Source: Candidatus Dojkabacteria bacterium (GTDB lineage Bacteria; Patescibacteriota; Dojkabacteria; B142; OLB20). Taken from it: a stretch of 64,000 nucleotides of DNA. This document shows positions 6,494-63,798 of this stretch, in pieces; positions within the stretch are counted from its first letter, which is position 1; the number at the start of each line of letters is the position of its first letter. The notes under the pieces are model-generated. The model ran no database searches and had not been told where the DNA came from. It saw only the letters and a program-made list of their open reading frames with translations. The position numbers and the translations under genes are program-made. Location: positions 415,559-479,558 of the forward strand of contig CP129475.1 of NCBI GenBank assembly GCA_030583785.1, in the 5' to 3' direction.

Positions 6494-6517
6494 AGAATTT
6501 TTTAAATTTATTAAAAA

Positions 6518-6603
6518 TGCTGGTGGTGGGGGTCGAACCCACACGCGGGGTAAGCCGCACGGGATTTTGAGTCCCGCGTGTCTGCCAATTCCACCACACC
6601 AGC
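6518..6603 (-). tRNA. tRNA-Leu(CAA), type II (long variable arm); 3' CCA not encoded
   Basis: The minus-strand read is GCTGGTG-TG-GTGGAATTGGCAGACAC-G-CGGGA-CTCAAAA-TCCCG-TGCGGCTTACCCCGCGTG-TGGGT-TCGACCC-CCCAC-CACCAGC-A. It has a 7-bp acceptor stem, a 5-bp anticodon stem and anticodon CAA. The discriminator A is followed by TTT, not CCA. Confidence 0.85.
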
Positions 6604-6663
6604 AAGAATTAAGCAGTGTTTGCAAGGATTATAAGTGATGAGTAGGAAAAAGACAAAACGAAA

Positions 6664-27998: not shown

Positions 27999-29228
27999 TT
28001 ATTTGATGTTCTTTAGTTCTTCAAGCGCCTTTGCATCCTGTTCTTCGTAATCATCTACTAGGATATCAGGCACGATTGGATCATCTTGATTAATGTTTTT
28101 ACCTGAAGGTGTCAACCATTTCTGGAAGACGAGCTGCAAAGTAGAACCATCTCTAAGCGTAATTAATCTTTGCTCAACTCCTTTACCTACAGTTTTCGAA
28201 CCTATTACTTTAGCTCGGTTATTATCAGAGATAGCACCTGCAAATATTTCTGAAGCAGATGCGCTTCCGTCGTTAACGATAACAACCATTGGCATATTAA
28301 GTAATCTTCCATCTCTATTAACTCGATGCTCAGTTTTGTTCCCACGGCGGTCTTCTTCACGGAAGATCATACTATTTCTGGGTAAGAATTCACCTAGAAC
28401 ATATTCAACCGAATTAACAAAACCTCCTGGGTTGTTTCTAACATCTACCACGATTCCTTTTGGATTCTTTGCAATTATTTGATCTACAATACTGTCCCAT
28501 TGCTTATTAAATGCTTCAACGGAGTCTTCTGTAAATTTATATATCTTTACTTTGAGATAACCGTCTTGAATATCTTCAATTACAATATTGTCTAGATCAA
28601 TTTTTGCCCTAGTTATTGTAACTTCATATCTTTTTGACGATTCTGGACGGAACAAAGCAAGAAGAACATCTGTTCCTGCCTGACCACGGATTGTTGCTGC
28701 AACTTCGTAAACGCTCTTACCCTGCATATCAGATCCATCAACCTCTAGAATGATGTCTCCAGGTTCAAGTCCAGCTTGTTTTGCGGGCGATCCATCTATA
28801 GGGCTTTCTACAGCCGCATACTCCCCTTCTTGTCTAAGAGTCGTTCCTATACCTTCAAACTCGCCTTTATTAGAACTAAGATATTGCTTAGTTTCTTCTG
28901 GAGTAAGAAAAGCTGTGTACTTGTCTCCAAGACCACTGACTAGTCCCTTAACTGCTCCATACAACAATTCCTGTCCATCTACCTCTTTGTTTATGTATTC
29001 TGCATCAATAAGTTCCCAAACTTCCCATAATAAGCCAAGATCAACTTGTTTAAACTCTTTTTTTGCTCCGGTAAGTTGATAATCAGATCTTGATGATCCT
29101 GTTGTGCTGTTTTGAGATTGAATATTCTGTGTTCCTAGATAGAAACCACCCAGGAAGAATCCGACAATTAAGATGAAAATCAGTAGTAAATAAGTAATAA
29201 ATTTTGTGTGTTTATCCATGTTATTCAT
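27999..29228 (-). CDS. Carboxyl-terminal processing protease (S41 family, CtpA/Prc-like) with PDZ domain
   Basis: An N-terminal TM helix precedes a PDZ (GLEPGDIILEVDGSDMQGKS) and the S41 catalytic region VVIVNDGSASASEIFAGAISD...KTVGKG (Ser/Lys dyad). Confidence 0.85.
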   Translation of the reverse strand: MNNMDKHTKFITYLLLIFILIVGFFLGGFYLGTQNIQSQNSTTGSSRSDYQLTGAKKEFKQVDLGLLWEVWELIDAEYINKEVDGQELLYGAVKGLVSGLGDKYTAFLTPEETKQYLSSNKGEFEGIGTTLRQEGEYAAVESPIDGSPAKQAGLEPGDIILEVDGSDMQGKSVYEVAATIRGQAGTDVLLALFRPESSKRYEVTITRAKIDLDNIVIEDIQDGYLKVKIYKFTEDSVEAFNKQWDSIVDQIIAKNPKGIVVDVRNNPGGFVNSVEYVLGEFLPRNSMIFREEDRRGNKTEHRVNRDGRLLNMPMVVIVNDGSASASEIFAGAISDNNRAKVIGSKTVGKGVEQRLITLRDGSTLQLVFQKWLTPSGKNINQDDPIVPDILVDDYEEQDAKALEELKNIK

Positions 29229-31119
29229 CTAAAGGTATAATATTGCCAATAAACGAAGAAGATACTTCGTCTTTCGAGCTAAGTAACAACTCGGTTCCTT
29301 CTTGGACACTTTCTATTCTAGCATAAGGGTATGAGCTTTTATAATCAAAAAAACGAACTCTATTACCTTTGATGAATTTTGCTTTACTAAGCTGAATTTC
29401 CTGATCATCTTCTTCGATTTTTGAGGCAGAAGTTACCTTAAATTTCAATTTTTCTCTCTCAAATATCAACTCATTGTTTTGAATTACAACAAATTGTCCA
29501 AGCAAGCTTCGAATTAATCTAGTTTCCTTGGCTGACATTTGAATTCCAGGTTCCCTTATTATTACCAGATCACAGTACTTCCAGACAGAATTCCCCAAGA
29601 TTCTTCGTATCGATAATGTATCATTAACAGCAGGAACAATAACAACCCTAATAGAATATTTGAGAACATCCTCTATACTCGGAAAGGCTCCATCATCGTG
29701 ATACAGGACCTTAGGGACAAAAGGAGCATCTGTTGTGTAATTTTGAACAATCTTTCCAAAGACCGATTCAGATGTGGACAAAAACAAGGGAAAACTCGAG
29801 GCACTATTCGGCTTTATCGCTAGACCTCTTTTTGGATAAACTGCCGAAATCTCACCAGAAAAAGGTGAAGAAACATCATAAATAATCTTTTGTCTAATTT
29901 GAACAATATTTTCTTCTGCGAGCAAAGAGTAATCAACTCTTCCAAAGTGTAATTTGTTTTCTTTTCTTCCAAGTAGCTTATTTTTCGAAAATAAGTCTTC
30001 CCCCTCTTTAAAAAATTCGCCATCACTAAGTCTTAATTTATCCCTTTTCGTGTCTACTCGAACTGCATCACCAACATAATCAGCTTCGAGTTTTACTAGA
30101 GCAGCATTTTTCTCTACCTTATCGCCAGGATTTATATAATGTTCTGAATTTAGTACATTAGGGTGAATAAGTCTGACTTCTTCTACTCGATTATTTACAA
30201 AGATTTGTTTTAAATAACAATAATTATTCTTGTTAAAATCTTTGTACCCAGTTCTGTGTATATATTTACTAAAAGTCGCGCTATCCATTTCAGATATTCT
30301 AGGCAAAGGAAATTCGGACAGGTAAACATATTCGGACAACAATCGATTATTATATGAATACCCCATGTTTCCACTAAAGAGTTGGATTCCACTACCATCA
30401 TTGACGAGCACCCTCTCACCCTCAGAGGAATTAAATGCGTATTTGGACAATTTCGATTTAATACTTGGTTTGTTTATCCAGGTTAACTGTGGAATAAAAG
30501 CACGATTATGAAGGTAAGATACAGGATTTTCTCGCTTAACCTTTGATACAGAAAGAGTTTCGAAAATTGCCATCTTATCGATAAATACCCTAGCATCCTG
30601 ATTGCCTAATAAGACACACAGAATCTGAATAATTAGAATCCCATCCAGCCAACCACTCCAAAGCATCTCCCCACCAATAGCTACCTCTGTAAAAGAAGTG
30701 TTCTCAAATTGTATAGGAGGTAACTTTGATAATAGTTCTTCGAGTATAAGCGAATTAACCTTACGATCTTCATGGTTGTATGTTAATACAGGATTAGTAA
30801 AGTATCTAGAAACAACCGCCTGTGCATCAATCTTATTCTTTTTTTGCCTAGATAATGCGTCTACGATAAGCTCCTCGCTAATTTCTAACTCGAATATCTC
30901 TTCACCAAGAACCAACAACCATTTATCAAAATTCATCTGCAAGTAGAGTTCATACTGACCAACCTGTGACAATAGTTTGCGAATGTTGTCGATCCTAGCC
31001 TCATTATTTGACCTCCTGCCTATGCTGGAGGCAACGATTGAATTACTTTCGAGGAATACTTCAAAATCAGAATACGGCCTTGAATATTTGTTTAATCGCC
31101 TCGATATTTGCCAAGGCAC
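29221..31119 (-). CDS. Hypothetical 632-aa protein with one predicted TM helix (about residues 150-175) and a possible biotin-lipoyl/HlyD-like beta segment
   Basis: The TM helix is MLWSGWLDGILIIQILCVLLG. The segment HYINPGDKVEKNAALVKLEADY...FSGEISAVYPKRG loosely resembles membrane-fusion-protein beta-barrel halves. No catalytic motif is recognised. Confidence 0.35.
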   Translation of the reverse strand: MPWQISRRLNKYSRPYSDFEVFLESNSIVASSIGRRSNNEARIDNIRKLLSQVGQYELYLQMNFDKWLLVLGEEIFELEISEELIVDALSRQKKNKIDAQAVVSRYFTNPVLTYNHEDRKVNSLILEELLSKLPPIQFENTSFTEVAIGGEMLWSGWLDGILIIQILCVLLGNQDARVFIDKMAIFETLSVSKVKRENPVSYLHNRAFIPQLTWINKPSIKSKLSKYAFNSSEGERVLVNDGSGIQLFSGNMGYSYNNRLLSEYVYLSEFPLPRISEMDSATFSKYIHRTGYKDFNKNNYCYLKQIFVNNRVEEVRLIHPNVLNSEHYINPGDKVEKNAALVKLEADYVGDAVRVDTKRDKLRLSDGEFFKEGEDLFSKNKLLGRKENKLHFGRVDYSLLAEENIVQIRQKIIYDVSSPFSGEISAVYPKRGLAIKPNSASSFPLFLSTSESVFGKIVQNYTTDAPFVPKVLYHDDGAFPSIEDVLKYSIRVVIVPAVNDTLSIRRILGNSVWKYCDLVIIREPGIQMSAKETRLIRSLLGQFVVIQNNELIFEREKLKFKVTSASKIEEDDQEIQLSKAKFIKGNRVRFFDYKSSYPYARIESVQEGTELLLSSKDEVSSSFIGNIIPLDE

Positions 31120-32489: not shown

Positions 32490-33212
32490 TTAGTTTCTAC
32501 TAATTTGAGTATTGTATACTCCTCTTTCTACAATTGTTGCCTGACCTGCAGATGTCCGAACCAAAAGAATGAGTTGTTGCTCGGCAAAGATAGCAATTAT
32601 ATCACCTGCCTTAGCCTTTGCATAGAATTCTGGATCTTGTTTCTGTAGAACTGTAGGGTCTGTAACTACAGACATTTGAGGATTGGCATCTGTATTCTGT
32701 GAGATCAATCCTGCAGAAACAGCTGCATTCACGACACTATCTCGTAATGCCTGCTGATTCTTATTAAGAAGTACTCCAGGACTTTCACCTTGGTAAATGA
32801 TTTCTCCGGTTTCTCTTCGATAGATTACCATCTTATCTGAAAAACCAAGCACATAGTCACCATTATTGGCATTGGCATACACCTCTGCCTGAATAGAATT
32901 TGCCTTTCTTAGGCTTTCTGCATCGGCAACAACACTTACAACAGGGTTCTCGAAAGGATTGACCTGTACTAACGCAGCAACCTCTTCAGTTACTTGCTGT
33001 GTAAGATTTTTTTCTGCCAAGTATGGAGGATTTATTGTTAAAACAATATTAATTACCAACAATATAATAATTATCAAAACCGAGGGAACAAGAATCGTAT
33101 GAGCACTGATTTTGATGCCCTTTCGTTGTTGTTGATTCATTCCATAGTGTTGATTCATCGAATCATTCGGCAGATTTGGTTGTTGCATATATACGGGATA
33201 ATAATTACCCAT
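32490..33212 (-). CDS. Hypothetical membrane-anchored protein, paralogous to 33531..34016, containing two copies of a ~45-aa motif
   Basis: A Gln/Asn-rich N-terminus and TM helix (ILVPSVLIIIILLVINIVLTI) are followed by motif copies ...EVYANANNGDYVLGFSDKMVIYRRETGEIIYQGES and ...EFYAKAKAGDIIAIFAEQQLILLVRTSAGQATIVERG. Confidence 0.45.
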   Translation of the reverse strand: MGNYYPVYMQQPNLPNDSMNQHYGMNQQQRKGIKISAHTILVPSVLIIIILLVINIVLTINPPYLAEKNLTQQVTEEVAALVQVNPFENPVVSVVADAESLRKANSIQAEVYANANNGDYVLGFSDKMVIYRRETGEIIYQGESPGVLLNKNQQALRDSVVNAAVSAGLISQNTDANPQMSVVTDPTVLQKQDPEFYAKAKAGDIIAIFAEQQLILLVRTSAGQATIVERGVYNTQISRN

Positions 33213-33263
33213 AAACTATAACCATTTGCAAATATCAAGTCAATGAGGATCTAAAGAAGAAAA

Positions 33264-33294
33264 AAAATCACGTAGTGCAAGTACGTGATTTTTA
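33264..33294. terminator. Perfect 12-bp inverted repeat hairpin (AAAAATCACGTA gtgcaag TACGTGATTTTT) flanked by A-run and T-run; candidate bidirectional rho-independent terminator
   Basis: The stem-loop is read directly from the sequence. On the minus strand it is followed by TTTTTTTT, consistent with terminating the 33531..34016/giant-gene transcript. Confidence 0.5.
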
Positions 33295-33530: not shown

Positions 33531-34016
33531 CTATTCTTCGAGGGTTGGGGTTGGAGTTGCCACCTCAAGGTCCGATCTTTTGATTGGCACAATAGCAATT
33601 ATAATATCTTGGGATTCTCTATAAATAACTGCTTTATCTGAGTAGACCAATAGCCGATCACCGTTCTGTGCATAAAAATAAAAGTTTGGATTAGAGAGTT
33701 TTAGCTGTTCGATATCAGATATAGTTGCTACTGTGGGCTTCTCGTCGTCTGGAATAAGGAGTTTTTTAGCGACATTTTGCGCAACATCATTGTTTTTTAT
33801 CGATTCACCGGCAACTTCACCCTGTGTTGTTTGGTCCTCTGCCTGACCAAGATAGCCGTTACTAAGCAGAAACGAATGGCTTAACCAACCTGCAACAAAA
33901 AGTATAACTGCCAAAGTAAGGCGCAAAATCAAATCTACAGTATTTGCTGACTGATTCTTACCTAACGATGAGACAATTGTTCTTTGGTACTCTGCTCCGT
34001 ACATAGTTTTGATCAA
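33531..34016 (-). CDS. Hypothetical membrane-anchored protein, paralog of 32490..33212, immediately downstream (40 bp) of the giant gene
   Basis: A TM helix (LAVILFVAGWLSHSFLL) is followed by a motif copy NFYFYAQNGDRLLVYSDKAVIYRESQDIIIAIVPI, aligning with NGDYVLGFSDKMVIYRRETGEIIY in the paralog. Confidence 0.45.
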   Translation of the reverse strand: MIKTMYGAEYQRTIVSSLGKNQSANTVDLILRLTLAVILFVAGWLSHSFLLSNGYLGQAEDQTTQGEVAGESIKNNDVAQNVAKKLLIPDDEKPTVATISDIEQLKLSNPNFYFYAQNGDRLLVYSDKAVIYRESQDIIIAIVPIKRSDLEVATPTPTLEE

Positions 34017-34055: not shown

Positions 34056-37000
34056 CTAATTTATTATGAAGTAGTTAAATATTGTATCAGTATCAATTGA
34101 GTTTTCGATTTCTATCGTAAACCCGACACCTGGTTTAATATTTACAACCCTATATTGGACAAATTGGTTTGCAGTAAGTTGAACAATTGAATCTGAATTT
34201 ACCTGAATGTTGTTAACCTCTACTCTAACAGACCCGGCTGAAATAACTGCCTTACCGGCAGCCTGATTCTGCCCTGTTCCAAGAGATAGTTTTCTTTCTA
34301 TCAATAAGCTGTTTGTAACAGCTTCGTTAGCGTAAAAGACTCCTAGAACATCAAGATCACCTTCTACGACTAGAGCACCTTTTACTACTAACTGATCAAT
34401 CGAGATTGCTAATGAAGTACTACCAGGATTATCGATAATCTCAAATAGATTATCTCCATTTGCTAAGGTAAATGATTCGATTTGCAGAGCAGAGATTCCG
34501 TTGTTTCTTTCTCCAAAGACTTCACTGCCAACATATATTGGAGACACATAGGCATTGATTCTTCCAATTTCTGGTAGAACTGTTGCTTCTTCTTGAATCA
34601 TCTCTGCCAGAATTCTTGCTTTCTCATCCTCAATATTAAGTTCCTTGTAGAGTTCATTATTAACTAGATTTAACAAAGTCTGTGCGTCCTCGTTACTAAG
34701 CCCCTGTCTGATTAACTCATCAATATAATCATAAGCTTCTATTTTGTAATTAACTATGTTTTCACGAACCAGCTCGGAATCTCCAGCAGTGAAGAATGTC
34801 GAGTCAAAATCCTCGAGCGCTCTACCAACAACCATGCCAGGTTTTGTTGCTCTCATTACATATCCAGGAATGGATGCTGGAGCAAGGAAATCACCTCGTT
34901 TTATCGGACCGTTTTCTTCCGAGATATATACTATGCTTGATCCTCTCATTAATGTTGGGACAGATGCAGTCGACCCATTAACTAGCTTATCGATGTTCAC
35001 CTTTGGAGAAACTGAAGCAACACCAGCTATTAGATTTGAATTCAAGTTGTTAGACTTAGATACCTCAAGAGGATTATCTGTGTAAGAAACAACTTGACCC
35101 GGCAAGACTAGCTCTTCTTCTTTGGCGAAGAACATTTCGTTAGTCGATTCAACAGAGATTGTGTTGTTGATCACAATTGGGTCAATTGGTTTGATTATTG
35201 GCGCTTCTGATTGATCTGGAGCTTCAATCTCGGGGTCGAAAGCTAAACTAGAACTGTCTTCACCCATTACGAACTCTGGAATTCCATCTCCGTCTGCATC
35301 GAATTCGAACTTGCCTGTTTCAGGATTAAATCTAATAACACCATATCCGTTGCTACCAATTGCTATAGAATTTTCATCTGATGGGTCGAACCAAGTATTA
35401 TTGATCATCACTAGAATGCTTATCTTGCCCGATTCTTTTGTCCAAGCTTCCAGAGCTGTTCCGATAATCATACCTCTGCTTGTTGCTTTCTGTCCTCTAC
35501 CTGCATTCGATGATACCGAGATAGGATCACCGATAGAAATATCCTGCGATTCTGTAGATATTTTGACGGGGACTCTTCCTGCCAAGGCAAGCGGTTTGAA
35601 GTAAGCCAAATCTAGTTTATTATCTGGTGTAGATGGGTTTAGTACCAACCCTGGATTTGTTGAAATAATTCCCAATACATTATTCCGTGAAGAAGTTGTT
35701 GCTTTTTCAACAAGAAATCTATTGTACAGATTCTCGTCTTCGTGTTGCTTGTTTGATACGCTGACGATATCGCCTGCACTTATTGATGTATCATCGGTTT
35801 TGACATATTCTGCAATGTCCGGAGTACCCGAACCGTTAGTCATATCAACCCATTCATAGTTGTTCGAAGAATTCTGTCTGCACAAGTAGATTGAACCATT
35901 CTCCCCAGAGTCCCGATTATAGATAGTAGTGCCAACGGTTGAAGAATCGCATGTAGGAGCATTACCTGTCGCTACATTAGCATATACTATTCCAGCAGAT
36001 GTTCCTGAGATGACTATATTTCCACTCACAGTGATTGAATCACTTAGTTGAAACTCACTGTCAGTGCCGTTCCACTTCAATGTTTCTGTATTTGTTCCCC
36101 CGAAGTTGATTGTGATATCACCTGAAGCAGTTGTATCTTGATCTGTCTGGAGATAAAGGTCACCATCTGTGAAGATTCCTCCTTCAACCCCTAAAAGGCC
36201 TGCCACAAACATATCATCTCCAGATAACGAGAAACTACCGTGAGCAATGGTTGATGTTGCACTTGTTGAAGCACCAACGATTAAATCGCCTCCCACATAA
36301 ACACGGTCTCCAACTTCAAGGTCATCTGTGACTCGCATATCACCTGCAGATGGAGTACTTACATAGCTAAATGCAGCATCTGCACCAATTATTATTGCTT
36401 CTGTATTTGAGAAATATCCGTTTGTTCCATTGGTCCATAGTGCGCCTGCCAGGAGATCAATATTTGATGATCCATTATAGAAATAGAGGTTCGTTCCGTT
36501 CCACCATAGATCTCCATTAACAGGTGCAGATGGATTCACACCAGATGAAGATGATAGATTAATCTGAGCACTTGCTGTTGTTGCTGCTTTGATATCTAAC
36601 CAAGCATCTGGATTCTGTACACCAATTCCGACCCTATCTGTCCCACCAGATGCATTGATCAGATACGAATCGGTATCGCCCTCAATTATAAAATCTACAG
36701 CAGCACCATTTTGGTTAAATACAAAGTTTGCATCATTGAGTTCAAGAGTATCTGCGTTCGTATATTCGAGTCTTCCAGTGTTGCCATTTGCAGAATAGAA
36801 ATCGATTTTTCCATTTGATCCTGAACCGACACCAACTCTCACCAGATTATTGTTTACATCAACACTAAAGGCAGCAGTAAGTCCAGTACCGCCAATTGCA
36901 AAGTTATCTGTGGTACTAGTTAGATATGTAACCGTACCTGCATCAGTCAAGAGTGGATTGAATCCGCAGTTGGGTTGACTTGCATTACAAACCAATTTAT

Positions 37001-40000
37001 CACCCCAGTATAGATTATCAGTTGCAGCATTTGCTTGAGCAACAGTTGATAAGAAATTGTTTGGATTCGAACTACCTAGATGAATAAATTCTGTAACTTC
37101 AAGCCTATCGTCAACAACAACATAGCCATTATTATTCGCTCGCAGAATTAGATCTTCATCGCTAGCTAAATCTCCTGCGACAATGTATAGAGGCGAATCT
37201 GATTTAATGTAACTTGCAGTAGAGTTTGTGAATACGATGTCATTTGCAATCTGCACATCTCCAATACTTGTAAATGTGGCAGGCACATTGGCAGTGATGC
37301 CTACTGAAGATACAGTAAAAATCTCGGTACCATCAATTGCAAGCTCAAGTAGATTTCCACTAAACCCACTTGCAGGATTGACATACAATGCTGTCTCTGA
37401 TCCGTCGAGTTGTGTTCCCAATGTGGTTGTTCCTCCAAAAAGGAAATCGCCGTAGGTTTCGCTGGCTACATCATTAATGTAACCAAATTGATTAGCTCCA
37501 AAGCCGAATTCAAACCTTTGATCTGTTGCGTTGTCGTATCGCATAAAGAAGTCGGCGTTGCTTCCAAAGAACATTGATCTATCACTTGCTAGAAGAATGT
37601 CTCCACCAGTAAACTCCCAGCGATCATCGGTTGTAAATGTTATTGCTCCAGTATCTCCATCACTGGCAAACATATTCAAGACGGCATTGGCTGTTGATCC
37701 AGTGCCGATTCTAACGGTATTATCGCTAACATCAACACTAAAAGCAGCTCCAAGTGTGCTTCCACCGACTGCAAAGTCATCAGTTGTCTGGGTTAAATAA
37801 GAGATTGAACCTGAATCGGTGAATAATGAACCTCCTCCAAATGAGATACCGCAATTTGCTTCGCTAACATCACAAAGTAGGTCCTCTCCCCAATATAGAT
37901 CACCATTGGCACCAATACCAGTTGTGCCCACACTAAGGACATCAGAACTGTTTGTTCCTAAGTTGAGTCTGCCATCTATCTGTAGATTACCCGAATTATC
38001 AAGCCTAGCAACCTCCGTGGACAAGTCATTAACGAAACTCAACGCATAGTTTGTGTCACTAGTAATACTTAGGAGTACTCTCATATCAATCTCGTTATCA
38101 CCAGCGTTGTAATAATTACCTCGAAGTATTAAAGCACCTGAATTTGCTGTTGATCCTGTTGTTGAGTTGTCGATGATCATATTAAAAGGAGTTGTTCCTT
38201 GCACTGTTAAGTCTCCACCCACCCTGAAATTATCATCTGTTGCAAGAAGGTTGGTTCCTGCGTCATATAGATTTGTGTCGTTACCAATAACCAATCCACC
38301 GCTAGAGCCTGTCGAGATAACCCTTAACTGCTGATCGACCTGAAGATTGCTTGAAGTTACTAATAACTGAGTTCCCCCATCATAAAGATAAGTATCGTTG
38401 CCTATCTCAATACCAGCTGCAGACCCTGTTGTATTCAGCCTAAGTCTTCCGGTGCTGGGCTGGAAGAAGAATGGCCCTGTATCCGCACTGGCTCCAAGCA
38501 CAAAATTATCGGATGTACTAGTAAGGTATGTGAATGTGCCAGAGTCTGTAAATAACGAGCCAGTCCCGGCTAATAGATCAACAGTCTGACTGCCATCATA
38601 AAAGTTCAGACTAGTTCCATTAAACCAAAGGTCACCTGACCCGGGAGAACTTGGATTAGTTCCTGGCGAGAGATTAATCTGAGCGTTTGATGAAGTTGAA
38701 GCTGCAATATCAAGGAATGCTGTAGGAGCAGTAACTCCACCAATGCCGACCTTTCCTCCTGAGCTTTGCAAGGCAAGATCACCAGTGCTAATTATACTTA
38801 ATACATTAGTGGAAGTGTTGTAACTAATTGCCCCTTCGTCTGTCGTTGAAGTTCCAATATGTAGAGTACTTGGACCTAAGAATAACTCTTGGAAACGCCT
38901 TGTGTTTGATCCCAGATTGAAAGACTCGTTCGTGGAAGGCATTAAACTATTTGAAATCTCAAAACCAGTTAATGATGATCTCCAGGCAAGAACCTGTGGG
39001 CTTGTGCCTCCAAATTGAATTAAGGCATCTCCAGAAGCAGTATTTACATCTGTCTGTATATAAAGGTTGCCGTCAGAATAAATATTACCTTCAACTCCAA
39101 GATCTCCAGCGACGAACAAGTCGTTTCCATTCAGAACAAAACCACTATCGGCAATAGTAGATGTTGTTGACCCGATAAGTAGATCACCTCCACTCACATA
39201 AACATCGGCACCTGCAAATTCAAAAGTATCACTATCGAGAAATACTATGCTTCCACTATTTGTAGCATCACTTGCATAAAATTGTATCGTAGGATCATTG
39301 GAATCATTAGCGCCGTCACCAATTCTAACTAAGTTGGCAGCAACATCAACACTAAATGGAGCAACTAGCGTGTTATTTGCACCAACTGCAAAGTTATCGG
39401 CCGTCTGAGTTAAGTAAGTAATTGCGCCTCCATCTGTAAATAAAGAGGATCCACCAAAGGCGATGCCGCAGTTTGGTTGACTTACCATACAAATAAGATC
39501 CTCACCCCAGTAGAGGTCGCCATTTGCCGATGCACCAGTTGTGCCGACACTAAGTAAGTCACTAGTATTTGTTCCAAGATTCAATCGACCAGAAATCTGA
39601 AGGTTGCCCGATTGGTCTATACTTCCGACTTCACTTGCTTGAGCAGAGTTGTAAAAGCTTAATCTGTAGTCTGTATCGCTAACAATGTTTAATAACAAAC
39701 GCATATCTATCTCTGAGTCAGAAACGTTGAAATAATTTCCTCGAAGAATTACAGCACCTGAATTTGCAGTTGCCCCAGTGGTTGTATTATCAATTACAAT
39801 ATTTCCTGGAGTTGTTCCGCTCACAATCAAACTATTACCTCCGGTTATACTCGCATTTCCACCTGCAACTTGAAGAGCATCGTTAATATATACAAGATAA
39901 GAACCACCAGCACTTAATTCAAGATTTGCTCCTGTTTGGGAGATGAAACCGTCTGTAAGGGCTAGAGTACCTGCTCCAACATATATTCCATTTTCAACAT

Positions 40001-41561
40001 ATAACGCATCTCCTACTCCTAAAAGATCTAAGACAAATAGGTCGTCTGCATTGGCAGCATCAAGTACAAAATTTGTGTTTGTAAGAGGAGTATCATCACC
40101 TGACCAATTGCCGATTATGACATCATAATCATTCTCAACTGTTGCAGTGTTACTACCAGAATTGAAGGTAACTGTTTCCCATAAACCGTAGTTCGAATTA
40201 CACCCTGTTCCGTTCTGCAGACAAACCCTTTGATCTCCCCAAAAAAGGTCGTTTGTTGCTGCACTGGCTGCAGAGATGCCTAGAACATTATTAGCTGCAT
40301 TCCCAATATTTACAGTACCACTAACTATTAAGTTGCCTGTGCTTCCAGCATCTGTAAGAGCCATTAAGAGATTTGTTCCATCCCTGTATTCAAGACGATT
40401 ATTGGAAGTACTGTAGAATACCTGAATATCATCATCCGTACCAAGCATTAGCCTTGTATCATCAGTTATTCTAAAGGCTCCGCCACTCCACTGAAGAGTA
40501 TCAACAATATACTCAAACATGCCTGTATCACCTGTGGAAGAATAGAATTCTACCTTTGCATTTGATGTTGAACCATCTCCGAATCGAATCCTGTTTTCGC
40601 TCTTCTTAACGCTGAAGGCAGATACAAGTGTCGAAGAAAGCGACAAATCAGAGCCAGAAGAAGTAAGATAAGTTACATTTCCGTTGATAGTCCAAAGACC
40701 GCCTCCTCCTCCCGATGCTGCGTTAAGTGCATGAAGGATTGAATTAGTTCCTGCAGGAAGCGAACCATAAACTCCATCACTAAATGCGATATCTCCTGTA
40801 TTTGTATCGTTAAAAGTAAGTGTTGCATTACTGTATATGCCACCGGCATTGATATTAGCGTTACCTGCAATCGTAAGGTCGCCGCCATTAGATATTGTAA
40901 ATCTATCAGAACCCCCAACCTGAAATTGCAACAAGTTCGGAGTTCCGGTTCCATTCTCGTTCAAGAATAAAAGCGGAGAGGTAACATTACCAGTTTCTTG
41001 AACAGATGCAGGTGAGAGATGTACGAACCCAGTTGAAGAGATACCACCCAGGGTCTGAGCTTCGTATGCAAAAGGCACTGTGGTTAACAATTTTCGAGTA
41101 AATGTTTCTGGACTTGAAAAGTCACCGTTTCCGTCATCGTCGAACTCTACCTGTATATAGATTGTGTTGTCAGCGCCCCATACCAAACCTGATCCGCTAC
41201 ATCCACCAGAAGGTGACTCCCAGCTATTACAGATCGAATTCAGAGAAAGAGAGAATACGCCATCGTAATCTCCAAGTTCAACATCTTCATGAGTTTCTTG
41301 CCATAAAAGTGTTCCACCAACGCTGTCTGAATAGATACTGATTCTGAGGTCGCAAGTATCGGCTCCGGCTGAAACACAAGCTGGTGAACCCGGCACAAGG
41401 TTTGTTCCATTTGTCTTGTTGACTATCTTTCCTTGAAAACTCATTTGACTAGAAACAGCGGCTAGAGTAGATGGTGGGAAAGACAACAACGCCAGAAAGA
41501 TTACAACAGCTATTGCAATAGCTATGGTTGGCAGAATTTTTAGATTTTGTTCAGAACCCAT
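34056..41561 (-). CDS. Giant (2501 aa) secreted/surface protein: N-terminal signal anchor, long Gly/Ser/Thr/Asn/Asp-rich presumably beta-helical region with repeated DLYWG(E/D)..C.....NCG modules and an internal ~190-aa duplication, two tandem ~130-aa C-terminal domains
   Basis: The N-terminus ILPTIAIAIAVVIFLALLSFPPSTLAAVS is a signal/anchor. Four modules recur: DLFWGDQRVCLQNGTGCNSNYG, DLYWGEDLICMVSQPNCGIAFGG, DLYWGEDLLCDVSEANCGISFGG and NLYWGDKLVCNASQPNCGFNP. The strings LLAGTGSLFTD.G..TYLTSTSDNF also recur. A duplication spans aa ~578-770 vs ~1118-1310. The C-terminal pair is AGDIVSVS...ALAGRVPVKIS...GDPISVSS...TSRGMIIGTALE vs PGQVVSYT...LMRGSSIVYIS...GDFLAPAS...TKPGMVVGRALE. Confidence 0.8.
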   Translation of the reverse strand: MGSEQNLKILPTIAIAIAVVIFLALLSFPPSTLAAVSSQMSFQGKIVNKTNGTNLVPGSPACVSAGADTCDLRISIYSDSVGGTLLWQETHEDVELGDYDGVFSLSLNSICNSWESPSGGCSGSGLVWGADNTIYIQVEFDDDGNGDFSSPETFTRKLLTTVPFAYEAQTLGGISSTGFVHLSPASVQETGNVTSPLLFLNENGTGTPNLLQFQVGGSDRFTISNGGDLTIAGNANINAGGIYSNATLTFNDTNTGDIAFSDGVYGSLPAGTNSILHALNAASGGGGGLWTINGNVTYLTSSGSDLSLSSTLVSAFSVKKSENRIRFGDGSTSNAKVEFYSSTGDTGMFEYIVDTLQWSGGAFRITDDTRLMLGTDDDIQVFYSTSNNRLEYRDGTNLLMALTDAGSTGNLIVSGTVNIGNAANNVLGISAASAATNDLFWGDQRVCLQNGTGCNSNYGLWETVTFNSGSNTATVENDYDVIIGNWSGDDTPLTNTNFVLDAANADDLFVLDLLGVGDALYVENGIYVGAGTLALTDGFISQTGANLELSAGGSYLVYINDALQVAGGNASITGGNSLIVSGTTPGNIVIDNTTTGATANSGAVILRGNYFNVSDSEIDMRLLLNIVSDTDYRLSFYNSAQASEVGSIDQSGNLQISGRLNLGTNTSDLLSVGTTGASANGDLYWGEDLICMVSQPNCGIAFGGSSLFTDGGAITYLTQTADNFAVGANNTLVAPFSVDVAANLVRIGDGANDSNDPTIQFYASDATNSGSIVFLDSDTFEFAGADVYVSGGDLLIGSTTSTIADSGFVLNGNDLFVAGDLGVEGNIYSDGNLYIQTDVNTASGDALIQFGGTSPQVLAWRSSLTGFEISNSLMPSTNESFNLGSNTRRFQELFLGPSTLHIGTSTTDEGAISYNTSTNVLSIISTGDLALQSSGGKVGIGGVTAPTAFLDIAASTSSNAQINLSPGTNPSSPGSGDLWFNGTSLNFYDGSQTVDLLAGTGSLFTDSGTFTYLTSTSDNFVLGASADTGPFFFQPSTGRLRLNTTGSAAGIEIGNDTYLYDGGTQLLVTSSNLQVDQQLRVISTGSSGGLVIGNDTNLYDAGTNLLATDDNFRVGGDLTVQGTTPFNMIIDNSTTGSTANSGALILRGNYYNAGDNEIDMRVLLSITSDTNYALSFVNDLSTEVARLDNSGNLQIDGRLNLGTNSSDVLSVGTTGIGANGDLYWGEDLLCDVSEANCGISFGGGSLFTDSGSISYLTQTTDDFAVGGSTLGAAFSVDVSDNTVRIGTGSTANAVLNMFASDGDTGAITFTTDDRWEFTGGDILLASDRSMFFGSNADFFMRYDNATDQRFEFGFGANQFGYINDVASETYGDFLFGGTTTLGTQLDGSETALYVNPASGFSGNLLELAIDGTEIFTVSSVGITANVPATFTSIGDVQIANDIVFTNSTASYIKSDSPLYIVAGDLASDEDLILRANNNGYVVVDDRLEVTEFIHLGSSNPNNFLSTVAQANAATDNLYWGDKLVCNASQPNCGFNPLLTDAGTVTYLTSTTDNFAIGGTGLTAAFSVDVNNNLVRVGVGSGSNGKIDFYSANGNTGRLEYTNADTLELNDANFVFNQNGAAVDFIIEGDTDSYLINASGGTDRVGIGVQNPDAWLDIKAATTASAQINLSSSSGVNPSAPVNGDLWWNGTNLYFYNGSSNIDLLAGALWTNGTNGYFSNTEAIIIGADAAFSYVSTPSAGDMRVTDDLEVGDRVYVGGDLIVGASTSATSTIAHGSFSLSGDDMFVAGLLGVEGGIFTDGDLYLQTDQDTTASGDITINFGGTNTETLKWNGTDSEFQLSDSITVSGNIVISGTSAGIVYANVATGNAPTCDSSTVGTTIYNRDSGENGSIYLCRQNSSNNYEWVDMTNGSGTPDIAEYVKTDDTSISAGDIVSVSNKQHEDENLYNRFLVEKATTSSRNNVLGIISTNPGLVLNPSTPDNKLDLAYFKPLALAGRVPVKISTESQDISIGDPISVSSNAGRGQKATSRGMIIGTALEAWTKESGKISILVMINNTWFDPSDENSIAIGSNGYGVIRFNPETGKFEFDADGDGIPEFVMGEDSSSLAFDPEIEAPDQSEAPIIKPIDPIVINNTISVESTNEMFFAKEEELVLPGQVVSYTDNPLEVSKSNNLNSNLIAGVASVSPKVNIDKLVNGSTASVPTLMRGSSIVYISEENGPIKRGDFLAPASIPGYVMRATKPGMVVGRALEDFDSTFFTAGDSELVRENIVNYKIEAYDYIDELIRQGLSNEDAQTLLNLVNNELYKELNIEDEKARILAEMIQEEATVLPEIGRINAYVSPIYVGSEVFGERNNGISALQIESFTLANGDNLFEIIDNPGSTSLAISIDQLVVKGALVVEGDLDVLGVFYANEAVTNSLLIERKLSLGTGQNQAAGKAVISAGSVRVEVNNIQVNSDSIVQLTANQFVQYRVVNIKPGVGFTIEIENSIDTDTIFNYFIIN
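37634..38210 (-). repeat. Copy 2 of intragenic duplication inside the giant gene (approximate bounds)
   Basis: It reads LTVQGTTPFNMIIDNSTTGSTANSGALILRGNYYNAGDNEIDMRVLLSITSDTNYALSF...DLYWGEDLLCDVSEANCGISFGG...FSVDVSDNTVRIGTG. Confidence 0.6.
39254..39830 (-). repeat. Copy 1 of intragenic ~190-aa (~575 bp) duplication inside the giant gene (approximate bounds)
   Basis: Protein segment LIVSGTTPGNIVIDNTTTGATANSGAVILRGNYFNVSDSEIDMRLLLNIVSDTDYRLSF...DLYWGEDLICMVSQPNCGIAFGG...FSVDVAANLVRIGDG is ~65% identical to copy 2. Confidence 0.6.
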
Positions 41562-62234: not shown

Positions 62235-62310
62235 GCTGGAATAGCTCAGTTGGTAGAGCATACCCATGGTAAGGGTAAGGTCTCGGGTTCGACCCCCGAT
62301 TCCAGCTCCA
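62235..62310 (+). tRNA. tRNA-Thr(GGT), CCA encoded
   Basis: GCTGGAA-TA-GCTC-AGTTGGTA-GAGC-A-TACCC-ATGGTAA-GGGTA-AGGTC-TCGGG-TTCGACC-CCCGA-TTCCAGC-T-CCA. The fold is hand-built with anticodon GGT. Confidence 0.85.
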
Positions 62311-62363
62311 AAGTAAAGCAAGTTTGTAGAAAATAAATCTTGTTTTGGTATAATGGCGATAAC

Positions 62364-62449
62364 GCAGGGATGGCAGAGCGGTCAAATGCTCCAGACTGTA
62401 AATCTGGCGTCGCGAGACTACGGGGGTTCGAGTCCCTCTCCCTGCACCA
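62364..62449 (+). tRNA. tRNA-Tyr(GTA), type II with long variable arm, CCA encoded
   Basis: The acceptor is GCAGGGA/TCCCTGC, the anticodon arm CCAGA-CTGTAAA-TCTGG, and the variable arm CGTCGCGAGACTACGG. The T arm is GGGGG-TTCGAGT-CCCTC, with discriminator A + CCA. Confidence 0.85.
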
Positions 62450-62572
62450 TTCTTTGTGAGCAAAGCGAACAATTAGAAGGGTGACGTGCCCTTGGTACTG
62501 CACCATTCTTTGTGAGCAAAGCGAACAATTAGAAGGGTGACGTGCCCTTGGTACTGCACCATTCTTTGTGAG
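62442..62572 (+). repeat. Tandem direct repeat, 56-bp unit x2 plus 19-bp partial third copy, first copy beginning with the last 8 nt (CTGCACCA) of tRNA-Tyr
   Basis: The unit ctgcaccattctttgtgagcaaagcgaacaattagaagggtgacgtgcccttggta begins at 62442 and 62498, identical, and partially again at 62554. Each unit holds a small hairpin AAGGGtgacgtgCCCTT. Confidence 0.85.
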
Positions 62573-62580
62573 AATCAGTT

Positions 62581-62656
62581 GCTGGGATAGCTCAGTTGGT
62601 AGAGCAACGGTTTTGTAAACCGTCGGTCAAGGGTTCGAGTCCCTTTCCCAGCTCCA
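62581..62656 (+). tRNA. tRNA-Thr(TGT), CCA encoded
   Basis: GCTGGGA-TA-GCTC-AGTTGGTA-GAGC-A-ACGGT-TTTGTAA-ACCGT-CGGTC-AAGGG-TTCGAGT-CCCTT-TCCCAGC-T-CCA. Confidence 0.85.
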
Positions 62657-62736
62657 AAATAATCCACCACTTCTTGTTAATTCAAGATTTCTGCAAAATA
62701 TGACAACAGAATGCCATGGCAATGGTATAATTCATC

Positions 62737-63462
62737 ATGCAAATCGAAGGAAGAAACACAGTTATTGAGGCCTTAAAGGCTAAGAGTAATCTTAAAGTCA
62801 TATATATTGACGAGAACATTGCTGCCGATCCAAAAATCAATAAAATACGCAAACTAGCATCTATGCAAAATGTTCCAATTAGACACAAACCAAAAAAACA
62901 CTTTAAAAAGATATCTCAAACTGGAACCCATCAAGGAGTCATAGCTGTTAAGCAACAAGAAATACCCCGAAGCTTTCTTGAATTGATACATAACAATATT
63001 GAAAAAGATTTTCAATACTACATTTATATTCGTGAGGCTCTATATGAACATAACATCGGGGCGATTATCAGAACTGCAGAAGCGGCAGGTGCATCTGGCG
63101 TAATCCTCCCCCCAAAAACTAAAATGACGGCACAAACCGTTAGAATATCAATGGGTGGGACAGAACATGTTCCCGTTATCAACGAAAGCCTTTTTCCTGC
63201 AATAAAAACCGCCAAAAGCAATGGACTCAGAGTAATTGGTATCGAAGTCAGCGGAGAAAACTACTACTTTGAATCCGACCTAGTGGGCCCTGCTCTATTT
63301 ATTATTGGCGGTGAAGATAGACCTCTAAGCGAAGAAATAACTTCTAGATGCGACTTGGTAGTTAAAATTCCACTCCTCGGTTACTTAAACTCATTAAATA
63401 TGAGTGTCGCAGCAGCAATTGTTTTATACGATAAAGTTCGTCAAGAATTATCAAAAAAATAA
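62737..63462 (+). CDS. SpoU/TrmH-family RNA 2'-O-methyltransferase (RlmB-like)
   Basis: An N-terminal L30e-like substrate domain (IEGRNTVIEALKA) precedes SPOUT motifs (GAIIRTAEAAGASGVIL ... LFIIGGEDRPLS ... IPLLGYLNSLNMSVAAAIVLY). Confidence 0.8.
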   Translation: MQIEGRNTVIEALKAKSNLKVIYIDENIAADPKINKIRKLASMQNVPIRHKPKKHFKKISQTGTHQGVIAVKQQEIPRSFLELIHNNIEKDFQYYIYIREALYEHNIGAIIRTAEAAGASGVILPPKTKMTAQTVRISMGGTEHVPVINESLFPAIKTAKSNGLRVIGIEVSGENYYFESDLVGPALFIIGGEDRPLSEEITSRCDLVVKIPLLGYLNSLNMSVAAAIVLYDKVRQELSKK

Positions 63463-63494
63463 GTTGCTTGGCTGGACTATCTGCAGGTTTATGG

Positions 63495-63500
63495 TACAAT
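63495..63500 (+). promoter_or_regulatory. Candidate extended -10 (TGgTACAAT) upstream of rpmG-tRNATrp-secE
   Basis: The sequence tatggTACAAT at 63491..63500 lies about 50 nt upstream of the rpmG ATG. This is by eye only. Confidence 0.3.
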
Positions 63501-63549
63501 AGCCTAGATTTTCCCGTATATGGGTTATTAATTTATTACGCGTTCGGAC

Positions 63550-63717
63550 ATGGCCAAAAAAGGCAACCGCATCTTGATCAGGTTAATGAACAAAGCTACA
63601 GGTACATTTTATGTATCTAGCAAAAATAGAATAAACACTACCGACAAACTCAAAGTCCAAAAGTTTGATAAAAAAACCGGAAAGCACGAGATTTTTGAGG
63701 AGACAAAAATTAAGTAA
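63550..63717 (+). CDS. rpmG: 50S ribosomal protein L33 (55 aa; below ORF-track cutoff)
   Basis: The translation MAKKGNRILIRLMNKATGTFYVSSKNRINTTDKLKVQKFDKKTGKHEIFEETKIK is the L33 fold pattern without Cys ligands, with stop TAA at 63715. Confidence 0.8.
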   Translation: MAKKGNRILIRLMNKATGTFYVSSKNRINTTDKLKVQKFDKKTGKHEIFEETKIK

Positions 63718-63723
63718 GCTCAT

Positions 63724-63798
63724 AGAGCCATGGTGTCAATGGTAGCACGGCGGTCTCCAAAACCGTTGGTAGTGGTTCGAATCCACTTGGCTCTGCCA
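63724..63798 (+). tRNA. tRNA-Trp(CCA), CCA encoded
   Basis: AGAGCCA-TG-GTGT-CAATGGTA-GCAC-G-GCGGT-CTCCAAA-ACCGT-TGGT-AGTGG-TTCGAAT-CCACT-TGGCTCT-G-CCA. It sits in the classic position between rpmG and secE. Confidence 0.85.

Follow-up and report, generated by a model that had tools for sequence, protein, structure and literature searches.

In a 64,000-nucleotide stretch of Candidatus Dojkabacteria DNA (contig CP129475.1; hereafter the window), one gene on the minus strand, at 34056-41561, encodes a giant protein of 2501 amino acids (aa) that we read, with a probability of roughly 0.6, as a Sec-exported, probably homotrimeric surface fibre of Dojkabacteria (WS6, candidate phyla radiation (CPR)/Patescibacteria) that is laid out like a phage tail fibre. 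Its two tandem C-terminal modules, copies A and B, represent a remote branch of the phi29 gp12/Peptidase_G2 intramolecular-chaperone fold, a relation at the level of the superfamily. A sequence-only reading of the same stretch had compared the architecture with that of phage tail fibres, and the comparison holds, as the C-terminal modules show homology to phage tail-spike and tail-fibre modules in their fold and, weakly, in their sequence. The gene and its C-terminal features, on which the argument turns, are as follows.

34056..41561, minus strand: whole gene, 2501 aa plus stop codon, from the open reading frame (ORF) list and its translation
35844..35984, minus strand: small Cys-bracketed segment, aa 1860-1906 (C1871...C1894), read directly in the sequence
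35400..35843, minus strand: copy A, a G2-type intramolecular-chaperone-like module, aa 1907-2054, with D-I-A-E at aa 1915-1918 (nucleotides 35808-35819)
35151..35399, minus strand: linker from A to B, aa 2055-2137, kept only in close relatives
34794..35150, minus strand: copy B, the same module, aa 2138-2256, with N-E-M-F replacing D-x-A-E (same profile, 107.6 bits, E 2e-35)
34275..34793, minus strand: region after copy B, aa 2257-2429, its first part helical by eye, partly conserved in the family
34059..34274, minus strand: terminal six-stranded beta-sandwich, aa 2430-2501, of the tailspike C-terminal/H-lectin-like type

Internal repeats were sought by self-BLAST of the protein in chunks, as a whole-protein self-BLAST gave the diagonal only. 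In the C-terminal region aa 1951-2038 align with aa 2167-2250 at 30% identity (E 7e-5), and one family profile matches both copies (147.6 bits for A and 107.6 bits for B), so the tandem pair proposed earlier is real, with sizes of about 148 and 119 aa in place of the suggested ~130 aa each. An alignment of 42 copies of the module (A1) begins at its very start with a D-x-A-E motif in which Glu is invariant and Asp and Ala are at least 90% conserved; further conserved blocks read GD, G..S..P, AL.GRVP.K and GD. The D-I-A-E of copy A is identical in the orthologues. Copy B has lost the motif, reading N-E-M-F here and SNEIVA in WS6 bacterium OLB20.

The sequence-only reading could place these domains in no family. 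The A1 profile now does so by matching the phi29 pre-neck appendage protein gp12 in the PDB (E 0.0025), with D-x-A-E aligned on DFAE, the first residues of 3gqh, which is the separately crystallised C-terminal fragment of gp12. The Asp and Glu of the gp12 motif have a catalytic role. The fold of gp12 residues 692-854 is the three-dimensional fold found for the module, and the acidic D-x-x-E with which the released gp12 fragment starts is present at the beginning of copy A and missing from copy B. Peptidase_G2 is matched below threshold by 13 of the 42 A1 members (best E 9.5e-5), alongside phage cement families; single-sequence PDB searches returned nothing. In gp12 this C-terminal domain is an intramolecular chaperone: the trimer requires it for assembly, it is cut away once the protein has folded, and the virion lacks it (PMC3357383, PMC9863714, PMC4690869).

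Two non-significant PDB matches of the A1 profile may be recorded beside these, one to the Aureispira grappling-hook protein GhpA (9flp, E 0.077) and one to P22 of chlorovirus PBCV-1 (8h2i, residues 1126-1189, 'SGADYAEMMEWED', E 0.026). The P22 match keeps the D-x-A-E start, a hint that giant-virus fibres contain the module too.

The extreme C-terminus points to tailspikes as well. Structures were predicted for monomers, and in the model of aa 2330-2501 confidence is high only over the final 72 residues, which form a six-stranded sandwich (predicted local distance difference test (pLDDT) 84-98), with aa 2330-2429 of low confidence as a monomer (pLDDT 42-62). The terminal-domain profile matches PDB entry 7eea (E 1.4e-4), and among 34 relatives K1-lyase_C (PF24146) is matched by 13 and H_lectin by seven; the domain of the giant protein itself falls short of the curated K1-lyase_C threshold, with 24.4 bits against 27 (E 4.1e-5). 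In iterative local searches aa ~2330-2501 were conserved in 143 of ~330 relatives, lying at the very C-terminus in most of the listed relatives and ~80-230 residues from it in others. The same kind of search found the Cys-bracketed segment (aa 1860-1906) kept only in the Dojkabacteria orthologues and in two relatives, P0002 and P0003.

The protein belongs to a very large family, unannotated and made up mostly of giant CPR proteins, in which the ends are conserved and the shaft varies. With the C-terminal 601 residues as query, 93 proteins sharing a common ~140-aa module were retrieved, against two proteins for the DLYWG module of the shaft and one for the tail. No protein longer than ~1,050 aa appeared in these three homologue searches, and the giant relatives come from an exhaustive profile search and a genome scan. 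With a limit of E <= 1e-3 the exhaustive search yielded 31,962 cluster representatives, and with E <= 1e-10 it yielded 26,001. The best 150 representatives, 485-5,766 aa long, all carry two or three copies of the module (median spacing of the last two copies 134 aa, median tail 261 aa), and both copies retain D-x-[AS]-E in about 136 of these 150. With 84 aa between A and B and a tail of 245 aa, the giant protein fits the family plan.

CPR lineages are named in most titles of the best 80 genome loci, and ~25 loci (e.g. L006, L007, L014, L023, L029 and L044) are titled uncultured Gammaproteobacteria or Pseudomonadales, in third-party metagenome-assembled genomes (MAGs); unless these labels are unreliable, the family extends far outside CPR. 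Shorter relatives, some of them from Elusimicrobia, Omnitrophica and Chloroflexi, join the module with Gly_rich_2, Ig-like, FG-GAP, LVIVD, H-lectin and SH3 domains, and in 40 of 90 it is the protein's C-terminal domain. When the family consensus was compared with annotated phage genomes, the module turned up as the C-terminal part of PA5oct gp359, which mass spectrometry detected as a virion protein and whose gene adjoins the long-tail-fibre gene, and of Campylobacter phage tail fibre proteins, that of phage CP21 among them. The consensus was needed for this, as tblastn of copy A alone against phage genomes returned nothing.

All annotations looked up for family members read 'hypothetical protein', and a literature search found no paper describing this module family. 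Scans of the whole protein against Pfam, NCBIfam and PHROGs gave nothing significant, and the protein as a whole was assigned to no well-described, annotated family. It is not unique, being part of a family of at least 26,000 clusters, and most of its length, including the N-terminal domain and the shaft module, matches no family.

Export is suggested by the N-terminal features.

41460..41561, minus strand: aa 1-34, probably a Sec signal peptide, cleavage predicted between TLA and AV, from the hydrophobic segment and the A-x-A pattern of relatives
40962..41459, minus strand: conserved N-terminal domain (N-domain), aa 35-200, with Cys pairs 62/70 and 111/121, from iterative local search

The sole strongly hydrophobic segment of the protein is N-terminal, at about aa 5-38 (19-residue windows starting at 5-20), and had been taken for a signal anchor. 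In the 30 relatives examined an A-x-A-type site closes the leader and the conserved N-domain follows at once, and for this reason the N-terminus is probably a Sec signal peptide that is cleaved off and the anchor probably a misreading; the cleavage itself we infer from this pattern. The N-domain (~165 aa) stands directly behind the leader in 113 of ~330 relatives, and its profile has no significant match in the PDB or Pfam. All 14 cysteines of the giant protein fall into seven close pairs, 7-23 residues apart, which would fit short disulfide loops and in turn suggest an extracellular protein.

Between the N-domain and the Cys-bracketed segment lies the shaft, within which a module recurs in several states of completeness.

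35985..40961, minus strand: variable repeat-rich shaft, aa 201-1859, with internal repeats (E down to 2e-64)
40449..40895, minus strand: module copy without Cys loop, aa 223-371 (LWTINGNVTYLTSSGSDL..FSVK..RFG), module profile 102.5 bits, with internal BLAST pairs
40185..40343, minus strand: degenerate Cys-loop copy, aa 407-459 (DLFWGDQRVCLQNGTGCN), without LFTD string, 12.1 bits
39180..39623, minus strand: repeat module, aa 647-794 (DLYWGEDLICMVSQPNCG, then LFTDGGAITYLTQTADNF..FSVD..RIG), module profile 181.9 bits
38436..38702, minus strand: Cys-free variant module, aa 954-1042 (GDLWFNGTSLNFYDG, then LFTDSGTFTYLTSTSDNF), module profile 59.3 bits
37563..38003, minus strand: repeat module, aa 1187-1333 (DLYWGEDLLCDVSEANCG, then LFTDSGSISYLTQTTDDF), module profile 197.4 bits, ~70% identical to aa 647-794
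36702..37109, minus strand: repeat module, aa 1485-1620 (NLYWGDKLVCNASQPNCG, then LLTDAGTVTYLTSTTDNF), module profile 159.3 bits

Chunked self-BLAST aligned aa 601-750 with aa 1141-1288 at 70% identity (E 2e-64), and further internal pairs join aa 784-878 to 1751-1848 and aa 931-1042 to 1635-1744. The length of the shaft differs between orthologues, whose totals are 2143, 2501 and 3183 aa. The four DLYWG-Cys-NCG copies first described, each with its own LFTD string, prove less regular. Two copies, at aa 682 and 1221, match the Cys motif DLYWGEDL[IL]C....[PA]NCG exactly; that at aa 1516 starts NLYWG, that at aa 438 (DLFWGDQRVCLQNGTGCN) lacks both NCG and the subsequent LFTD..TYLT string, and there are in addition two Cys-free variants (DLWFNG near aa 975 and DLWWNG at aa 1684) as well as extra LFTD/TYLT strings. 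Of the 330 relatives examined, only the Dojkabacteria orthologues and a single Woesebacteria protein have the exact DLYWG-C-x6-C loop, and the LFTD..TYLT..FSVD..RIG half is more widespread than the loop.

The profile of the DLYWG/LFTD shaft module found no credible match in the PDB or Pfam, and for the beta-helical shaft that the sequence-only reading presumed no significant family match emerged. Searches with the N-domain and shaft profiles gave matches to PQQ-dehydrogenase at E 0.008-0.05, which we rejected as repeat-motif noise, and matches to gp37_trimer and Beta_helix that involved single members only and were not significant. The composition of the protein (G 11.2%, S 10.5%, T 9.0%, N 8.6%) bears out the Gly/Ser/Thr/Asn richness noted from the sequence, with Leu also frequent at 8.8%.

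The giant ORF is a real gene. As the sequence-only reading had it, there is a single gene of 2501 aa; its ORF runs unbroken through 34056-41561 on the minus strand, with 0 stops and 0 N bases. That reading also raised interruption or collapsed repeats as a danger, and neither was found. We reject misassembly because an identical protein is called on seven independently assembled contigs, the internal repeats are only 67-75% identical at the DNA level, and orthologues of 2143 and 3183 aa exist. Antisense to the gene, a 109-aa ORF at 34756-35085 (plus strand) is most likely a chance ORF in a long coding region.

If the fibre reading is right, maturation would proceed in four steps. The signal peptide (aa 1-34) would direct export and be cut after TLA. 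The C-terminal cassette would fold first and trimerise, copies A and B having the gp12-chaperone fold and aa 2430-2501 the tailspike-end fold; trimerisation of the giant protein is expected because the homologues are trimers. By analogy with gp12, K1F endosialidase and T5 pb1, the cassette would then set the register of the three chains, and the shaft (aa 201-1859) would zip towards the N-terminus. Finally, copy A may cut before D1915, between G-T-P and D-I-A-E-Y, freeing the last 587 residues, and to this self-cleavage we give about even odds. The proposed junction in the full-length chain reads ...GSGTPDIAEYVK..., and after such a cut the Cys-bracketed segment (aa 1860-1906) would be the new C-terminus. 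Xiang et al. in 2009 reportedly placed the cleavage of gp12 after trimerisation, with an ATP-dependent release, and are said to have suggested that bacterial adhesins possibly mature likewise.

Going by its architecture and by the lifestyle of cultivated CPR bacteria, the fibre's most likely task is to make contact with a host or partner cell, or else with a glycan on a surface. CPR bacteria in culture are attached to host cells, and few attachment factors are described for them beyond type IV pili and a few adhesins (PMC10633639).

Several observations weigh against this picture. The word 'fibre' goes back to composition and repeats, because no relatives of known structure could be detected for the shaft or the N-domain. 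Copy A scores 15.1 bits with the curated Pfam model PF11962 (Peptidase_G2), below its threshold of 25, and the residue preceding the motif Asp (D1915) is Pro, in contrast to Ser in gp12. Neither an LPxTG motif nor a second strongly hydrophobic segment was found in the giant protein, which leaves no visible device for anchoring it to the cell. The greatest difficulty concerns the fate of the cassette. Copy A is followed by 447 residues, among them the conserved lectin-like domain, that cleavage would remove, and most large relatives keep D-x-[AS]-E in both copies, which is hard to square with a discarded chaperone and strains the simple discard model. The module is terminal in 40 of the 90 shorter relatives, in PA5oct gp359 and in the CP21 fibre, and in the giants the tandem pair plus tail is the rule. 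If the cassette is thrown away, two modules and a conserved lectin-like tail are the main puzzle.

On the chief rival explanation, copies A and B could be permanent trimer clamps, comparable to phage cement proteins and the base of the phi29 head fibre, in which case the cassette would stay on the fibre and the terminal sandwich would be its distal, glycan-binding tip. We hold this to be unlikely, since a pure clamp has no obvious need for a near-invariant D-x-A-E exactly where the crystallised gp12 fragment begins, and since the module is the last domain of those 40 shorter relatives and of the phage proteins, as a removable chaperone would be.

The polarity of the fibre could also be reversed, with the lectin-like C-terminal cassette binding the cell's own wall glycopolymer and the N-domain distal and in contact with the partner. 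An apparently cleaved signal peptide with no other anchor in view, a fold of carbohydrate-binding type at the C-terminus and an N-domain conserved across the family all agree with such an arrangement. The homologous phage modules, however, sit at the virion-distal end of the fibre (known for gp12; in PA5oct and CP21 they are C-terminal), and the Pfam scan detected no SLH, LysM or SH3b wall-binding domain, so that we consider it improbable.

The gene's surroundings bear on whether it belongs to the cell at all. Its neighbours encode YchF, an RNase J-like beta-CASP protein, CCA-adding enzyme, CysRS, SSB, a CtpA-type S41 protease and HtrA. No phage gene and no paralogue of the giant gene was found in the 64-kb window, and four profiles built from the giant protein matched none of its other ORFs. 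A scan of species-representative genomes identified as nearest relatives WS6 bacterium OLB20 (74% identity in copy A) and a Candidatus Dojkabacteria MAG (57%), whose orthologues are 66% (OLB20, 2143 aa) and 61% (Dojkabacteria MAG, 3183 aa) identical over ~2,000 residues. In OLB20 YchF lies upstream, and OLB20 and the Dojkabacteria MAG each have two small genes downstream. Given these orthologues and this synteny, the giant gene is a conserved chromosomal gene of Dojkabacteria with a variable shaft length. A phage, prophage or tailocin tail-fibre gene, suggested by the fact that all assignable modules are nearest to phage tail-fibre and tailspike proteins, is very improbable and was rejected in view of the housekeeping neighbours, the lack of any phage gene or paralogue in 64 kb, the PHROGs scan without a significant match for the giant protein, a GC content only slightly above that of the surrounding window, the predicted Sec signal peptide and the same neighbourhood in three Dojkabacteria genomes.

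In OLB20 the gene appears split into 2143 + 360 aa (locus L002, 2082-8513 and 8579-9661), with the break just past copy A. We reject a different architecture there and read the split as a frameshift, because the sequence continues in another frame (GSNGKGVIRFN...FEFDADGDG); a second frameshift appears near the end. Probably these are sequencing or assembly errors in that MAG, or else the gene is a pseudogene.

The two small genes downstream of the giant gene are the following.

33531-34016, minus strand: small downstream gene, 161 aa, no Pfam match, one N-terminal hydrophobic helix by eye
32490-33212, minus strand: small downstream gene, 240 aa, no Pfam match, one N-terminal hydrophobic helix by eye

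Their products are paralogues (E 3e-9), syntenic in all three Dojkabacteria genomes, and as small membrane proteins they could be partners or anchors of the fibre. The giant gene may form a single operon with the 161-aa gene, because the two are only 39 nucleotides apart and a terminator-like hairpin follows the latter (33263-33293, minus strand, 12-bp stem and then a T-run). A promoter scan was at chance level (30 found, 29 expected). Further along, a 632-aa ORF without Pfam match (29221-31119, minus strand) has a 690-aa counterpart at the matching syntenic position of locus L003 (12908-14980). Four tRNA genes (Thr-GGT, Tyr-GTA, Thr-TGT and Trp-CCA) at 62235-63798 (plus strand), at the end of the window, together with a tRNA-Leu at 6517-6604 (minus strand), look like ordinary chromosomal content.

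The system is not categorically new, because its C-terminal domains belong to known phage fibre-assembly folds; what is new is that the cassette is cellular, Sec-exported and tandem. The link of the family's C-terminus to a phage chaperone and a tailspike end predicts that the protein forms a trimer, has a cleavage site in front of D1915 and binds glycans with one end, and the family points to an exchange of modules between phage fibres and cellular surface fibres. Going further, and only tentatively, CPR/Patescibacteria and some other phyla might have taken over a phage receptor-binding-fibre assembly cassette for giant Sec-exported fibres that trimerise and process themselves, have conserved ends and fast-evolving shafts, and are a main determinant of the host cells to which an epibiont can attach; we think this doubtful as a whole. 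Were it true, the cassette of tandem modules plus lectin would be a two-step maturation device without a described counterpart in phages. Four domain models are suggested by the analysis that curated libraries lack or barely touch, namely the N-domain, the shaft module, the G2-like subtype and the terminal sandwich.

Among known systems, phi29 gp12 (3gqh/3suc; PF11962) is the natural reference for the C-terminal modules, and the two proteins differ in several ways. Here the gene is cellular and encodes a Sec signal peptide; the two copies stand in tandem with ~245 further residues behind them, whereas gp12 has one terminal copy; copy B lacks the motif and copy A lies below the Pfam threshold; and a ~1,650-aa repeat shaft precedes the modules in place of the beta-helix enzyme domain of gp12. 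The trimeric cement or decoration proteins of phage capsids and the base of the phi29 head fibre (beta-tulip-related; HFTV1 8qsy, XM1 7kmx, phi29 gp8.5 6qyy) are small, stand-alone, capsid-binding proteins, whereas the giant exported protein carries the fold as an internal module. The terminal 72 residues resemble tailspikes and depolymerases (Klebsiella K1 lyase, PF24146; cyanophage Pam1 tailspike, 7eea) and H-type lectins in forming a six-stranded sandwich, which as in those tailspikes lies at the extreme C-terminus, and these are the best sequence and fold matches of the domain.

With the Peptidase S74 chaperones of K1F endosialidase and T5 pb1 the protein shares the proposed logic of C-terminal trimerisation, chain registration and self-cleavage (PMC4690869, PMC3357383). 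S74 nevertheless has a different fold and motif (a Ser/Lys dyad and a helical body) and is a functional analogue only; the Pfam S74 chaperone model matched neither the whole protein at E <= 1 nor any A1 member. An S-layer or sortase-anchored protein was rejected in view of no SLH match in Pfam, no LPxTG and no second strongly hydrophobic segment. An autotransporter or trimeric autotransporter adhesin was likewise rejected, as there is no Pfam or NCBIfam match (the Pfam scan found no autotransporter barrel, YadA anchor, SecA-like or dockerin-type domain) and the C-terminus is predicted to be a soluble beta-sandwich. The Omnitrophota giant genes (bioRxiv 10.1101/2023.11.21.568195) and the Saccharibacteria adhesins (PMC10633639) encode different proteins from this family. 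Like giant adhesins, among them trimeric autotransporters and the Omnitrophota giant proteins, the Dojkabacteria protein is very long, repeat-rich and, as predicted, exported, and such proteins are thought to act in cell contact; what sets it apart from them is that its termini are of the phage tail-fibre type.

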